In this document: positions 38,373 through 43,281 of the stretch, in pieces
Numbering within the stretch: the first letter of the stretch is position 1
Layout: each line of letters opens with the position of its first letter
Source of the DNA: Escherichia coli
GTDB taxonomy: Bacteria > Pseudomonadota > Gammaproteobacteria > Enterobacterales > Enterobacteriaceae
Direction: 5' to 3' (one strand)
Assembly (NCBI RefSeq): GCF_036507355.1
Contig: NZ_AP027877.1
Length of the DNA stretch: 64,000 nt
Program-made: the position numbers and the translations under genes
Notes under the pieces: generated by a model
The model's database searches: none
What the model saw: only the letters and a program-made list of their open reading frames with translations
What the model was told of the DNA's origin: nothing

Positions 38373-38761
38373 CCACCACGTGGGGGTAAAACCCCGCGTA
38401 TTGAATTGTGATGGTTTGGTCTCCTGCACCCTTTTTTAAATTTATATTTTTTATGTGAATATATTGTCTCTATTTATTATTATGAATTTCAAATGAAAAT
38501 CATAAATTTATTCACAATATAAATGTTTTATTGGCTGATATATATCACAGATAATTTTTAAAATATGCGTAAATATCCTTTAAGTTTACTGAAGGATAAA
38601 AATATTGTGACTTTCTTTGATTTCTGGGGAAAAACCCGACGCGACGAGAAAGAAGGGGGTGACGACTATCACCTTCTTTGCTGGCATTCGCTGGATGTGG
38701 CCGCGATGGGCTATTTAATGGTTAAAAGAAATTGCTTCGGGCTGGCGGTAATGACTCCAAC

Positions 38762-39265
38762 TTATTGATAGTGTTTTATGTTCAGATAATGCCCGATGAC
38801 TTTGTCATGCAGCTCCACCGATTTTGAGAACGACAGCGACTTCCGTCCCAGCCGTGCCAGGTGCTGCCTCAGATTCAGGTTATGCCGCTCAATTCGCTGC
38901 GTATATCGCTTGCTGATTACGTGCAGCTTTCCCTTCAGGCGGGATTCATACAGCGGCCAGCCATCCGTCATCCATATCACCACGTCAAAGGGTGACAGCA
39001 GGCTCATAAGACGCCCCAGCGTCGCCATCGTGCGTTCACCGAATACGTGCGCAACAACCGTCTTCCGGAGCCTGTCATACGCGTAAAACAGCCAGCGCTG
39101 GCGCGATTTAGCCCCGACATAGCCCCACTGTTCGTCCATTTCCGCGCAGACGATGACGTCACTGCCCGGCTGTATGCGCGAGGTTACCGACTGCGGCCTG
39201 AGTTTTTTAAGTGACGTAAAATCGTGTTGAGGCCAACGCCCATAATGCGGGCTGTTGCCCGGCAT
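38762..39265 (-). CDS. insB: IS1 InsB (expressed as InsAB' by a -1 frameshift)
   Basis: 167-aa ORF overlapping insA in the -1 frame. Confidence 0.9.
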
Positions 39266-39459
39266 CCAACGCCATTCATGGCCATATCAATGATTTTCTG
39301 GTGCGTACCGGGTTGAGAAGCGGTGTAAGTGAACTGCAGTTGCCATGTTTTACGGCAGTGAGAGCAGAGATAGCGCTGATGTCCGGCGGTGCTTTTGCCG
39401 TTACGCACCACCCCGTCAGTAGCTGAACAGGAGGGACAGCTGATAGAAACAGAAGCCAC
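39184..39459 (-). CDS. insA: IS1 InsA
   Basis: 91-aa [26 protein letters not shown]…. Confidence 0.9.
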
Positions 39460-41451
39460 TGGAGCACCTCAAAAACACCATCATACACTAAATCAGTAAG
39501 TTGGCAGCATCACCCGGGCTGGCTGATTATTTTCGTCAATTAGGGATTTCTGACAAGGAACAGGCGGCTCAATTTTTCGCCTGGTTGTTGTGCTGGCACG
39601 ATATTGGAAAATTTGCCCGCTCATTTCAGCAACTTTACCTGCACCCACAACTCAAGGTTCCGGAAGGCGCAAGAAAGAATTACGAAAAGATCTCTCATTC
39701 AACGCTGGGCTACTGGTTGTGGCATCATTATTTAAGTGAATGCGAAGAATTGCTTCCTGCCTCTTCACTCTCTACTCGCAAACTTAAACGTGTAATAGCG
39801 ATGTGGATGCCCATGACTACCGGGCATCATGGTCGGCCCCCTGACCGTATTGATGAACTGGATAATTTTCTGCCTGAAGACAAAGTTGCCGCGCGAGATT
39901 TTCTCCTTGAAATCAAGGCACTGTGTCCGCTCATAGAGATTCCCACATTCTGGGATAATGACGAGGGAGTTGAACTTTTAAAACAACTTTCCTGGTATAT
40001 CTCTGCAACAGTCGTACTTGCAGACTGGACGGGTTCGTCAACGCGATTTTTTCCACGCGTCGCACACCCAATGGATATTAAAGATTACTGGCAGAAAACT
40101 TTAGTTCAGGCTCAAAACGCCTTAACCGTCTTTCCTCCAAAAGCAGAAACCGCACCTTTCACCGGAATTAATACGCTGTTTCCTTTTATTGAGCACCCGA
40201 CACCATTACAGCAAAAGGTGCTGGATCTGGATATCAGCCAGCCAGGGCCACAGTTATTTATTCTGGAAGACGTGACTGGCGCAGGTAAAACAGAAGCGGC
40301 GCTTATCCTGGCGCACAGGTTGATGGCTGCGAGGAAAGCACAGGGTTTGTTTTTTGGCCTGCCAACAATGGCAACGGCCAATGCCATGTACGATCGGCTG
40401 GTCAAAACCTGGCTTGCTTTCTATTCGCCAGAGTCCCGCCCCAGCCTGGTGCTGGCACACAGTGCCCGCACATTAATGGACCGCTTTAATGAATCACTCT
40501 GGTCCGGTGATTTAGTCGGGTCAGAAGAACCGGATGAACAAGCGTTCAGTCAAGGATGTGCAGCCTGGTTTGCCGACAGTAACAAGAAGGCTTTACTGGC
40601 TGAAATTGGCGTCGGCACGCTGGATCAGGCGATGATGGCGGTGATGCCGTTCAAACATAATAATCTGCGGCTTCTGGGGCTGAGTAACAAAATCCTGCTG
40701 GCTGATGAGATCCACGCCTGTGACGCTTACATGTCATGCATTCTTGAAGGGCTGATCGAGCGGCAGGCGCGTGGTGGAAACAGCGTCATTTTGCTTTCTG
40801 CTACGTTATCCCAACAGCAGCGCGACAAACTCGTCGCCGCCTTTGCGCGTGGCACAGAGGGCCAGCAAGAAGCTCCGTTCCTTGAAAAGGATGATTACCC
40901 CTGGCTGACGCATGTCACGAAATCCGATGTGAACTCACACCGGGTAGCGACGCGCAAAGACGTTGAGCGTAGCGTCAGCGTGGGTTGGCTTCATAGTGAA
41001 CAAGAGAGTATTGCGCGTATCGAATCGGCGGTAAGTCAGGGAAAATGCATCGCCTGGATCCGCAATTCTGTCGATGACGCTATTAAGGTTCATCGTCAGC
41101 TGCTTGCCCGCGGCGTCATTCCCGCTTCCAGCCTTTCACTCTTTCATAGCCGCTTTGCTTTTAGCGATCGCCAGCGAATCGAAACGGAAACGCTGGCACG
41201 CTTTGGTAAAAATTGTAATTTAAAAAGATCATCGCAAGTCATTGTTTGTACACAAGTAATTGAGCAAAGTGTGGATATTGACCTGGACGAAATGATCTCC
41301 GACCTTGCCCCCATTGATTTGCTGATCCAGCGAGCGGGGCGATTACAGCGACATATCCGCGATATTAATGGTCAGTTAAAGCGTGACGGAAAAGACGAGC
41401 GTTCCCCTCCTGAATTGCTGATTCTGGCCCCCGTCTGGGACGACGCTCCTG

Positions 41452-41781
41452 GTGACGAATGGTTCGGCAGTGCCATGCGTACGCGCCTTTACAGAGGCCG
41501 CGCTTAAAGTCTCACCAACCGGAAAACAAAACAGCTTTGCCAGCCGTGCCTACGCCTCCTGGGCGCTGGCGGAAAAAGGCACTGTTCAACCGCGTTCTCT
41601 GGCGGCGGCTTTCTATGAACCCATTAATGGTACCCGTCAGTTAGATGTGGCGGTGCAGCGTATTACAACGCTTCGCGAAAACATGAATACGGTCTACGAA
41701 CAGAAGACTGAATGCGCAAGTTTTGACGTGATGAACAAACAGGGAAGCATGAAGGACGTACTGGACTTTATCTGCGCGTAA
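41452..41781 (+). pseudogene. 3' remnant of a cas gene, most plausibly the end of cas7/casC fused out of frame to cas3
   Basis: 109-aa frame ending 10 bp before the cas5 ATG, the position casC occupies in an intact I-E operon; the alternative reading is a frameshifted cas3 tail. Confidence 0.4.
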
Positions 41782-41791
41782 GGGGCGGCTT

Positions 41792-42683
41792 ATGAGCCAA
41801 TATCTGATTTTTCAGCTTCATGGGCCAATGGCATCCTGGGGCGTCGATGCCCCCGGCGAAGTGCGTCATACCCATGATCCGCACGCACATTCCGGTGGGA
41901 TCGGTCGCCTGCATTATGCTCGAACCGGGAACGAGAGTTTCCCACGCGGCGGTGCATCTGGCCGCCACGGTGGGAACACTGCTGGTCTGGGTCGGTGAAG
42001 CGGGCGTTCGCGTTTACTCTTCCGGACAACCCGGAGGGGCGCGGGCAGATAAATTACTCTACCAGGCAAAGCTGGCTTTAACGGAAGATCTACGCCTGAA
42101 GGTGGTGCGCAAAATGTATGAATTACGTTTTCGTGAGCCACCGCCAGCTCGCCGTTCAGTGGATCAGCTACGGGGAATTGAGGGATCCCGCGTTCGCCAG
42201 ACCTATGCATTACTGGCGAAACAATATGGTGTGAAATGGAATGGTCGCAAATACGATCCTAAAGACTGGGAAAAAGGCGATGTTGTGAATCGCTGCATCA
42301 GTGCTGCCACATCATGTCTGTACGGTATTTCTGAAGCGGCAGTATTAGCCGCGGGATATGCGCCCGCTATTGGATTTATTCATAGTGGCAAACCGCTTTC
42401 ATTTGTTTATGACATAGCCGATATCATTAAATTTGATTCGGTTGTGCCAAAGGCATTTGAAATAGCGGCAAGACACCCGGCAGAACCTGATAAAGAAGTC
42501 AGATTAGCCTGTCGCGATATTTTCCGTAGCACTAAGTTAACGGGCAAATTAATACCGTTAATTGAGGAAGTCCTTGCTGCAGGTGAAATTGAACCACCAC
42601 AACCCGCGCCGGATATGTTACCGCCTGCCATCCCTGAACCTGAAACGCTGGGTGATAGTGGTCACCGGGGGCGCGGCGGATGA
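41792..42683 (+). pseudogene. cas1: cas5 5' stub (about 27 codons, MSQYLIFQLHGPMASWG…) joined out of frame to cas1 lacking about 38 N-terminal codons
   Basis: Cas5-like start at 41792; from about 41876 the other frame reads Cas1 (IRTHIPVGSVACIMLEPGTRVSHAAV… to the C-terminus). Confidence 0.75.
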
Positions 42684-42973
42684 GCATGGTCGTGGTTGTT
42701 ACAGAAAATGTCCCTCCGCGCTTACGTGGACGGCTCGCAATCTGGCTATTGGAAGTGCGTGCCGGTGTGTATGTTGGTGATACATCAAAACGTATTCGGG
42801 AGATGATCTGGCAGCAAATTACCCAACTGGCTGGTTGCGGAAATGTGGTGATGGCCTGGGCGACCAATACCGAGTCGGGTTTTGAATTTCAGACCTGGGG
42901 AGAAAACAGACGTATTCCGGTGGATTTGGATGGGTTACGTTTGGTTTCTTTTCTTCCTGTTGATAATCAATAG
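42680..42973 (+). CDS. cas2: CRISPR-associated endoribonuclease Cas2
   Basis: 97-aa ORF overlapping the cas1 stop. Confidence 0.9.
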
Positions 42974-43069
42974 GTTATGTGTTCTTTAAAAATAAGGAAA
43001 TGTTTGAATTTAGTTGGTAGATTGTTGATGTGGAATAAATTTGTTTAAAAACAGATATGTATGCTTAGT

Positions 43070-43281
43070 GTGTTCCCGGCGCCAGCGGGGATAAACCGAC
43101 GAGGGGCTCGTTATTCGGGAAATTACAAAAGTGTTCCCCGCGCCAGCGGGGATAAACCGGCCCAGGGATTTGTTCAATCCAGCGTGCCGCTGTGTTCCCC
43201 GCATCAGCGGGGATAAACCGGGCGCACTGGATGCGATGATGGATATCACTTAGAATTCCCCGCCCCTGCGGTAGAACTCCC
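43070..43281 (+). CRISPR. Type I-E CRISPR array next to cas2: 3 repeats GTGTTCCC(C/G)GCGCCAGCGGGGATAAACCG plus a degenerate terminal repeat, 3 spacers of 32 bp
   Basis: Repeats at 43070, 43131 and 43192, degenerate repeat at 43253; 61-bp period; AT-rich leader at 42974-43069. Confidence 0.95.

Follow-up and report, generated by a model that had tools for sequence, protein, structure and literature searches.

The window analysed here, a 64-kb stretch of E. coli DNA, carries between cysH and iap a chromosomal type I-E (cas-E1) CRISPR-Cas locus that was very probably inactivated in three steps, leaving pseudogenes that drift to loss rather than a new system. Alignment of the cysH–iap interval to the intact cas-E1 operon of E. 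coli FORC_069 resolved four colinear blocks with exact breakpoints, and the difference in operon size (8,559 - 3,632 = 4,927 bp) is fully accounted for by two deletions of 3,520 and 1,407 bp. In gene order, the retained pieces are the 5' part of cas3, a copy of IS1, the middle of cas3, the tail of cas7, a stub of cas5, the 3' part of cas1, cas2, the leader and the array. The Cas products encoded here were 92-99% identical to characterised proteins, and alignments to NCBIfam families and PDB structures agreed with the tblastn map of the remnants. Its sequence shows that the locus can make no Cascade subunit, no Cas6e, no full-length Cas3 and no full-length Cas1.

The assignment to type I-E follows from the 29-nt type-2 repeats, the 32-nt spacers, the AT-rich leader beside cas2 and the cysH-iap location. 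The cas-E1 variant has been defined by a hok/sok module between cysH and cas3, an L1 leader, and cas sequences that group with E1 and not with the E2 of K-12 (PMC3903273). A hok/sok module (Hok ORF and Rfam sok, 38079-38372) is indeed present between cysH and cas3, and the nucleotide identity of 93-98% to hok/sok-bearing operons (FORC_069, O55:H7 and others) places the operon in cas-E1, which makes K-12 a poor reference for alignment. The K-12 system (cas-E2, ygcB-ygbF) shares the subtype, gene order and repeat family, and the Cas1 remnant of the present locus closely matches PDB 3NKD, the K-12 Cas1 structure, but K-12 represents another cas/leader variant and lacks hok/sok at this site (PMC3903273). 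The appropriate comparison is the intact cas-E1/L1 operon (arrangement A of Almendros et al. 2014, PMC3903273; FORC_069 and O55:H7 DEC5A), which occupies the same cysH-hok/sok-cas-CRISPR2.1-iap site and with which the locus is syntenic. The two have an identical leader, the same repeat and spacer lengths, the same oldest spacer(s) and 93-98% nucleotide identity per retained segment, whereas the locus studied here lacks 4,927 of the 8,559 bp, contains IS1 in cas3, has no Cascade or Cas6e and encodes truncated Cas3 and Cas1. A Shigella origin was considered, given the IS1 and the absence of any cysJIH match above 98.2% among complete RefSeq E. coli genomes, and was rejected: there is a single IS1 in the window, the cysC-pcm flank shares 99.7% identity with B1 E. 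coli, and the protein of the cas7 remnant is deposited from a 4.64-Mb E. coli genome. When the locus was scanned for promoters and terminators, the counts lay inside the shuffle expectation and are uninformative.

The 5' fragment of cas3 (38565..38746, plus strand) begins with the ATG at 38565 and comprises codons 1-61, the start of the HD domain; it was identified by tblastn with Cas3 residues 1-61 (96.7%) and by blastn to intact operons. It is followed by a complete IS1 of 768 bp on the minus strand (38747..39514), the only copy in the window, with both terminal inverted repeats, insA (39459-39184) and insB' (39265-38762) with their frameshift, and a perfect 9-bp target duplication, CGGGCTGGC, read directly at its ends (38738-38746 and 39515-39523). 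This element is 99.0% identical to the annotated IS1B of locus L002. The middle part of cas3 (39515..41481, plus strand; codons 59-713) holds the remaining HD domain and the helicase core, as seen from a 93.2% blastn match to positions 38225-40191 of L010, a tblastn match to Cas3 residues 59-717 and matches to NCBIfam cas3_core and cas3_HD. It corresponds to the intact gene up to nucleotide 2140 (codon 713 of 899) at 41481, after which eight out-of-frame codons lead to a stop at 41507, and the last 186 codons are gone. A full-length Cas3 with HD nuclease, helicase and C-terminal domain is not encoded; the match to NF007248 is partial, scoring 367 against a cut-off of 569.

The point at which cas3 loses its frame is the first deletion junction (41480..41481), where codon 713 of cas3 is fused to codon 252 of cas7 across a 2-bp microhomology, TA. 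The 3,520 bp removed comprise the cas3 3' end, the cas3-casA intergenic region, casA, casB and cas7 codons 1-251. What remains of cas7e (41482..41781, plus strand) is codons 252-351 and the stop, in a frame different from that of cas3; tblastn matched Cas7e residues 252-351 at 98%, and the match to NCBIfam TIGR01869 covers profile positions 248-325 of 325, below cut-off. Ten nucleotides separate the cas7e stop from the ATG of cas5e at 41792, which opens a 5' stub of 28 codons (41792..41877, plus strand; 86 nt matching L010 44022-44107 by blastn; TIGR01868 profile positions 1-38, below cut-off) whose ORF runs on out of frame to 41998. At the second junction (41876..41877, microhomology GA) the stub meets cas1e at nucleotide 117, between codons 39 and 40. 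Here 1,407 bp are missing, that is cas5 codons 29-248, the whole of cas6e and cas1 codons 1-39. Alignment to the intact operon thereby bears out the initial annotation, which had described a cas3 split by IS1, with a frame change in its 3' part and a remnant ending 10 nt before the cas5 start, and had put the switch from cas5 to cas1 after about 27 codons of the former and at about codon 38 of the latter; the exact figures are 28 codons and codon 40.

That annotation also held that cse1, cse2, cas6e and most of cas7 and cas5 had been lost, and tblastn of the 64-kb window, the operon alignment and the family and structure searches all agree. Reference Cse1, Cse2 and Cas6e proteins had no tblastn match anywhere in the window, and all that is left in it of the five Cascade subunits (Cse1, Cse2, Cas7, Cas5 and Cas6e) is residues 252-351 of Cas7 and residues 1-28 of Cas5; no full-length cse1, cse2, cas7, cas5 or cas6e ORF exists in the interval. 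One might suppose, as the initial annotation allowed, that the operon is truly intact and that the frame switches arose from misassembly or indel errors; nothing was found to favour this. The lesions are deletions of 3.5 and 1.4 kb and not single-base frameshifts, and both junctions are base-identical in independent assemblies, namely one draft genome at NCBI, two Logan assemblies made from separate sequencing runs, and one contig from a metagenome. Moreover, the cas7-remnant ORF has also been deposited (BED21181.1, from a 4.64-Mb E. coli genome), and we consider the probability of such an artefact to be negligible.

The relatives also provide information about the order of events. Junction 1 is identical in L005, L006 and L013-L016, and junction 2 in L005-L007, L013, L014 and L016. 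Two of these loci, L005 and L006 (GCA_905398585.1 and ERR3330519), are 99.95-100% identical to the one described here and carry both deletions, but they contain no IS1 and have an uninterrupted cas3 fragment of 721 aa. L015, a 574-bp metagenome contig (ERZ926208), has junction 1 at the same breakpoints, but its cas5 is normal and extends beyond the site at which junction 2 would fall. The occurrence of junction 1 alone in L015, together with the lack of IS1 in L005 and L006, points to the Cascade deletion, the cas5–cas1 deletion and IS1 as the likely order, the placing of the Cascade deletion first being based on the single L015 contig. In the first step, illegitimate recombination at a 2-bp microhomology would have removed the C-terminus of Cas3, the cse1-promoter region, cse1, cse2 and most of cas7; in the second, a deletion, again with 2 bp of microhomology, would have joined cas5 codon 28 to cas1 codon 40; and the most recent would be the insertion of IS1 into cas3 codon 61.

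Since an IS1 copy sits inside cas3, the deletions might instead have been generated by IS1 itself, through adjacent deletion or recombination between IS copies, as proposed for many cas arrangements in Shigella and E. coli. The element has nevertheless kept both its ends and a perfect 9-bp duplication, so that no adjacent deletion took place, and some 2 kb separate it from junction 1. When read directly, neither junction sequence showed any IS sequence, each having only its 2-bp microhomology, and the near-identical relatives carry both deletions but no IS1. IS1-mediated decay is thus highly improbable, and the three-step history with IS1 as the latest event is preferred.

With regard to function, type I-E interference requires the five Cascade subunits, Cas3 and processing by Cas6e, and because the system needs all of these, no interference would be expected from the locus. 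Both arrays in the window may still be transcribed from intact leaders, yet there would be no cutting to crRNA and no guided interference. To our knowledge, E. coli normally carries only this one I-E locus. In K-12 the I-E operon is intact but silenced by H-NS, and the cse1 promoter sits in the cas3-casA intergenic region. Spacer acquisition in I-E systems requires Cas1-Cas2, and naive acquisition needs only these two. It has been reported that casABCDE12 forms one H-NS-repressed operon transcribed from the cse1 promoter, Cascade being composed of Cse1, Cse2, Cas7, Cas5 and Cas6e, and that sigma-32 promoters are found inside cas7 and cas1 of K-12 (PMC4782391).

The two adaptation genes are in different states. 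cas2e (42680..42973, plus strand) is full length, with 97 aa, a tblastn match over residues 1-97 (99%) and a TIGR01873 score of 133.8 bits (cut-off 33). cas1e is represented by its 3' part (41878..42683, plus strand; codons 40-306; tblastn to Cas1e residues 40-306, 99.3%) and has lost residues 1-39 of the N-terminal domain and its native start codon, as well as the cse1 promoter that would lie upstream. The catalytic C-terminal domain is intact; the remaining 267 residues score above the cut-off of TIGR03638 (profile positions 36-268), and residues 40-304 align to K-12 Cas1 (PDB 3NKD), the region being 88-99% conserved. The only in-frame cas1 ORF (41820-42683) carries 19 foreign N-terminal residues, and junction 2 happens to place an in-frame ATG directly before codon 40, from which synthesis of some truncated Cas1 would in principle be possible. 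No Shine-Dalgarno sequence was visible upstream of either candidate ATG. Family and structure searches, together with the alignment, thus supported the earlier description of a 5'-truncated cas1, an intact cas2 and a 3-spacer array, while the phrase 'adaptation ... kept' in its title is slightly generous, since cas1 is itself damaged.

Given this, Cas1 residues 40-306 and Cas2 might conceivably still integrate spacers, in which case interference would be lost but the array would not be frozen. The sufficiency of Cas1 and Cas2 for naive acquisition, the intact Cas2, the conserved Cas1 region, the in-frame ATG and the intact leader all speak for this, as does the finding that E. coli keep cas1-cas2 more often than casA-casB (2,656 vs 2,430 genomes). 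Against it stand the missing 39 residues and the lack of a Shine-Dalgarno sequence at either ATG, the deletion of the cse1 promoter region, and the fact that transcription from the cas3 side upstream now runs into IS1; in addition, the array holds just three spacers, and the arrays are identical across all relatives found. We regard residual adaptation as having a very small chance of being correct. Acquisition would probably be lost, because Cas1 lacks residues 1-39, its own start and the cse1 promoter, and, from the established I-E mechanism, the addition of new spacers appears very unlikely, which would make both arrays relics. The initial proposal of no interference and probably no acquisition is, on the sequence evidence, in keeping with the established requirements of type I-E systems.

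The arrays themselves are well preserved. The CRISPR2.1 leader (42974..43069, plus strand) is of the L1 type, intact, and identical over the alignment to that of E. coli O55:H7 DEC5A, a strain whose operon is intact. It is followed by an array (43070..43281, plus strand) of three canonical 29-nt repeats at 61-nt spacing (43070, 43131 and 43192), a degenerate terminal repeat at 43253-43281 and three 32-nt spacers. Every locus compared has spacer 3, O55:H7/O157:H7 share spacer 2 and the variant repeat 3 with this array, and spacer 1 was found only among near-identical relatives. A private C>G change at 43078 sits in the stem of the first, leader-proximal repeat and is absent from repeat 2; acquisition would have copied it to the next repeat, and its restriction to the first repeat therefore argues against acquisition and lends slight support to our inference that the arrays are frozen. 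A second I-E array, CRISPR2.3 (22566..22777, plus strand; four repeats, three spacers), lies beside queE/ygcE and relies on the same lost cas genes. One of its spacers targets traD of F-like conjugative plasmids with the correct ATG PAM, and just one of its mismatches is expected to affect target pairing. No protospacer for any of the six spacers was found in 50,697 phage records, and a search of the window allowing up to 5 mismatches found no self-target.

In E. coli and Shigella, cas-E operons that are truncated or interrupted by IS elements have been described (PMC3903273; PMC12736100). The published minor arrangements (Almendros 2014 Fig. 5; the urological E. coli survey PMC12736100) likewise have partial or IS-interrupted cas genes beside a kept CRISPR2.1, with Cascade lost, but the breakpoints described here are lineage-specific and the deletions are not IS-mediated. 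Most partial operons also keep cas1-cas2 intact, in contrast to this locus, which has in addition lost the cas1 5' end and cas6e. Independent analogues in complete genomes include cas3-to-cas7, cas3-to-casA and casA-to-cas7 deletions (L001-L004, L008, L009, L018, L019). Among the complete E. coli genomes searched that carry cas-E1, ~8–13% had a partial operon; the 13% (372/2,792) probably counts genomes with only a ~100-bp match to the cas2 end (e.g. H109), and the conservative figure of ~8.5% corresponds to the absence of casA-casB in 226/2,656 genomes that keep cas1-cas2. It should be underlined that the top matches of the similarity search were almost all deleted operons owing to the distance over which pieces were joined (intact operons were split in two), and this is not evidence of enrichment.

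A further suggestion is that decay is ordered and selected instead of neutral, with selection against interference, for example to admit F-like plasmids or stop autoimmunity, after which the useless adaptation genes would have eroded neutrally; we find this unlikely. The suggestion refers to the independent deletions, whose left ends fall time and again in the 3' third of cas3 or in casA and whose right ends lie in casA or cas7, and to the early loss of Cse1/Cse2 with cas1-cas2 spared, junction 1 here having probably preceded the loss of cas6e and the cas1 start and then IS1. The CRISPR2.3 traD spacer is cited as well.

The decayed I-E locus is real but ordinary, an instance of a common and already documented fate, with little consequence beyond correct annotation. 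Its remnant ORFs, among them one that was deposited under the name 'hypothetical protein', are best annotated as pseudogenes, and the strain should be scored as functionally I-E negative despite its cas1, cas2, cas3 and array signatures, which bears on surveys relating CRISPR to plasmids or resistance. The asymmetry in retention between cas1-cas2 and casA-casB agrees with what others have published, and the three-step history obtained from the relatives provides a clean, small example of how cas-E operons erode.

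To reconstruct the cas remnant, we aligned the window by blastn with the fully intact cas-E1 operon of E. coli FORC_069 (L010), whose genes lie at 38052-40751 (cas3), 40849-42411 (casA), 42408-42944 (casB), 42956-44011 (cas7e), 44022-44768 (cas5e), 44750-45400 (cas6e), 45397-46317 (cas1e) and 46317-46610 (cas2e) of that locus. Four colinear blocks were obtained. The first, which extends up to window position 38746 (L010 38233), comprises the upstream flank and cas3 nt 1-182, and the second (window 39515-41481, L010 38225-40191) carries cas3 nt 174-2140. The third (41480-41877, L010 43710-44107) runs from cas7 nt 755 to cas5 nt 86, and the fourth (41876-43160, L010 45513-46797) starts at cas1 nt 117, spans cas2 and the leader, and ends within the array. 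Two deletions, of 3,520 bp at the cas3/cas7 join (junction 1, 41480-41481) and 1,407 bp at the cas5/cas1 join (junction 2, 41876-41877), fully explain the difference in operon size between L010 and the window (8,559 versus 3,632 bp). The 768 bp between the two cas3 blocks is a complete IS1, with insA/insB' on the minus strand, both terminal repeats and a flanking 9-bp duplication, CGGGCTGGC; cas3 is thus split by IS1, as the initial annotation had proposed.

The proteins gave the same result. When the eight L010 reference Cas proteins were searched against the 64-kb window by tblastn, we found Cas3 residues 1-61 and 59-717, Cas7 residues 252-351, an N-terminal stub of Cas5, Cas1 residues 40-306 and Cas2 residues 1-97, while Cse1, Cse2 and Cas6e had no match anywhere in the window. 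Every fragment maps to the corresponding part of its NCBIfam profile, those of Cas3, Cas7 and Cas5 scoring under the curated cut-offs, and the Cas1 fragment aligns with residues 40-304 of K-12 Cas1 (PDB 3NKD). The array beside cas2 (CRISPR2.1) consists of three canonical repeats and the known degenerate terminal repeat, and hence of three spacers. The initial annotation had read cse1, cse2, cas6e and most of cas7 and cas5 as gone, cas1 as 5'-truncated and only cas2 and a 3-spacer array as intact; the ORF listing, repeat finding and these searches all bear this out. The remnant belongs to a known class of pseudogenised I-E loci.

The remnant lies in an E. coli chromosomal context syntenic with FORC_069, in the order csrB-barA-relA-eno-queE, CRISPR2.3, cysJIH, hok/sok, cas remnant, CRISPR2.1, iap, cysDNC, rpoS and mutS. 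A full-length CsrB sRNA occupies 1536-1895 (Rfam RF00018, 384 bits), and a hok/sok type I toxin-antitoxin module is present between cysH and cas3 at 38079-38372 (Rfam sok, 105 bits; Hok family ORF). The flanks are 98-99.7% identical to complete E. coli genomes: the best identity among 5,426 of these was 98.2% for cysJIH (33637-38000) and up to 99.7% for the cysC-pcm flank. In this lineage the sequence adjoining the CRISPR-I locus is mosaic or unusually divergent. Other differences from FORC_069 were seen along the window. At about 26455, some 1.25 kb (ygcW and the 5' end of ygcU) is missing, and the ygcU ORF has 376 aa versus 484. The polymorphic rpoS-mutS region has the hydroxyarylic acid decarboxylase genes and lacks, at 57309-57344, the 6.1-kb ygbN-ygbI block that FORC_069 and K-12 carry. 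The ygbA-fhlA gap is about 480 bp longer and holds an ORF of about 141 aa (61338-61763, minus strand), by eye a possible TOBE/molybdenum-pterin-binding (Mop-like) protein. The region 3' of eno (19436-21400), about 0.9 kb longer, contains a LemA-like ORF (206 aa), a 120-aa ORF and the TPM-domain gene ygcG, apparently broken into ORFs of 109 and 158 aa and annotated as a pseudogene in FORC_069.

With regard to the origin of the lesions, the target duplication of IS1 is intact, and hence this element caused no adjacent deletion. Both deletion junctions show just 2 bp of microhomology (TA and GA) and neither has IS sequence, so these are simple deletions by illegitimate recombination. Relatives were located by exact-protein look-up with the chimeric cas1 ORF and the cas7 remnant, the latter deposited as BED21181.1 ('hypothetical protein VEE46_09490 [Escherichia coli]') in a 4.64-Mb record. 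The same locus was found in GCA_905398585.1 (L005), ERR3330519 (L006), SRR31122001 and two gut-metagenome contigs; none of the 5,426 complete RefSeq genomes matched the locus structure of the window. L005 and L006 carry both deletions and match the window at 99.95-100% identity on either side; their cas3 fragment is unbroken at 721 aa, so they lack IS1. Both junctions are also covered, at 100% identity, by a further locus (L016). Sequencing or assembly error as the source of the frame switches is ruled out by this recurrence in independent data sets. A 574-bp contig from gut metagenome ERZ926208 (L015, 99% identity) has junction 1 with breakpoints identical to those of the window and, for 51 nt past the position of junction 2, still reads as normal cas5. 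L015 resembles an intermediate allele and points to the Cascade deletion as the first event. The most parsimonious order is deletion 1, deletion 2 and then insertion of IS1, its first step being based on this one short contig.

Cascade requires Cse1, Cse2, Cas7, Cas5 and Cas6e, with crRNA maturation by Cas6e and target degradation by Cas3 (PMC4782391). Given this established I-E mechanism, interference from the locus would be impossible, as the initial annotation had predicted, since no Cascade subunit, Cas6e included, nor Cas3 can be made from it. In K-12, casABCDE12 is a single H-NS-repressed operon transcribed from the cse1 promoter (PMC4782391); by analogy, the counterpart of this promoter site would be the cas3-casA intergenic region, which falls within deletion 1. 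Transcription coming in from cas3 now runs into IS1. The N-terminal domain of Cas1 lacks residues 1-39, no Shine-Dalgarno sequence was found at the candidate ATGs of the cas1 remnant (41820 and 41874), and cas2 overlaps the cas1 stop codon in the native operon. An identical leader is found in O55:H7 strain DEC5A, whose system is intact, so that pre-crRNA transcription may persist at the present locus.

In the CRISPR2.1 array, spacer 3, the ancestral iap-proximal one, is present in every locus compared. O55:H7 and O157:H7 strains, in which the operon is intact, also have spacer 2 and the third repeat in its variant form. Spacer 1 occurs in near-identical relatives only and is absent from all 5,426 complete genomes. 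Given this distribution, either at least one spacer was acquired in this lineage before the system was destroyed, or intermediate spacers were lost. A private C>G at 43078 breaks a stem pair in the leader-proximal repeat; it is common to the window and GCA_905398585.1, and missing from repeat 2 and other strains. Since acquisition copies the first repeat, this weakly suggests that no spacer has been added since the mutation arose, consistent with a frozen array.

Such decay has precedents. Almendros et al. 2014 (PMC3903273) defined the cas-E1 and cas-E2 variants, associated E1 arrangements with hok/sok and the L1 leader, found cas-E2 strains to lack the hok/sok module, and showed 'minor arrangements' in which cas genes of E. 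coli and Shigella are partial or interrupted by IS elements; incomplete operons were likewise reported in a 2025 survey of urological strains (PMC12736100). In the handful of complete genomes that we examined (L001-L004, L008, L009, L018 and L019, other E. coli cas-E1 loci), there were at least six other internal deletions, independent of one another and each with its own breakpoints, starting in cas3 (nt 1765-2534) or casA and ending in casA or cas7: cas3 nt 1765 to cas7 nt 173, cas3 nt 2255 to cas7 nt 512, cas3 nt 2534 to casA nt 813, cas3 nt 2156 to casA nt 433, cas3 nt 2037 to casA nt 1165, and casA nt 1173 to cas7 nt 476. In strain 160-11H1 (L008) the deletion yields one 1,096-aa cas3-casA fusion ORF, annotated casA, and L002 has a separate IS1 insertion in cas3 (nt 589-597). 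Among the 5,426 complete genomes (clones not de-replicated), the whole E1 operon matched in 2,792, with at least 80% coverage in 2,420; the corresponding numbers were 2,466 and 2,430 for casA-casB, and 2,728 and 2,656 for cas1-cas2. By these counts, about 8-13% of E1-bearing genomes are partial, and loss is skewed toward the interference genes.

In CRISPR2.3, the sister array near queE, 29 of the 32 positions of spacer 3 (22717-22748) match traD of plasmid F (L017) and of over 4,600 F-like conjugative plasmids. The protospacer in F follows an ATG, which is a functional PAM for I-E. Spacer positions 14, 18 and 30 are mismatched; 18 and 30 belong to the 'every sixth' positions left unpaired in the established Cascade structure, and two of the three substitutions are silent in traD.

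The present locus adds another case to the known partial cas-E1 operons, slightly more eroded than the usual ones in that cas6e and the 5' end of cas1 are also missing. In view of the recurrent deletions and the traD-matching spacer in the sister array, selection for the loss of interference is a conceivable, if unlikely, reading.
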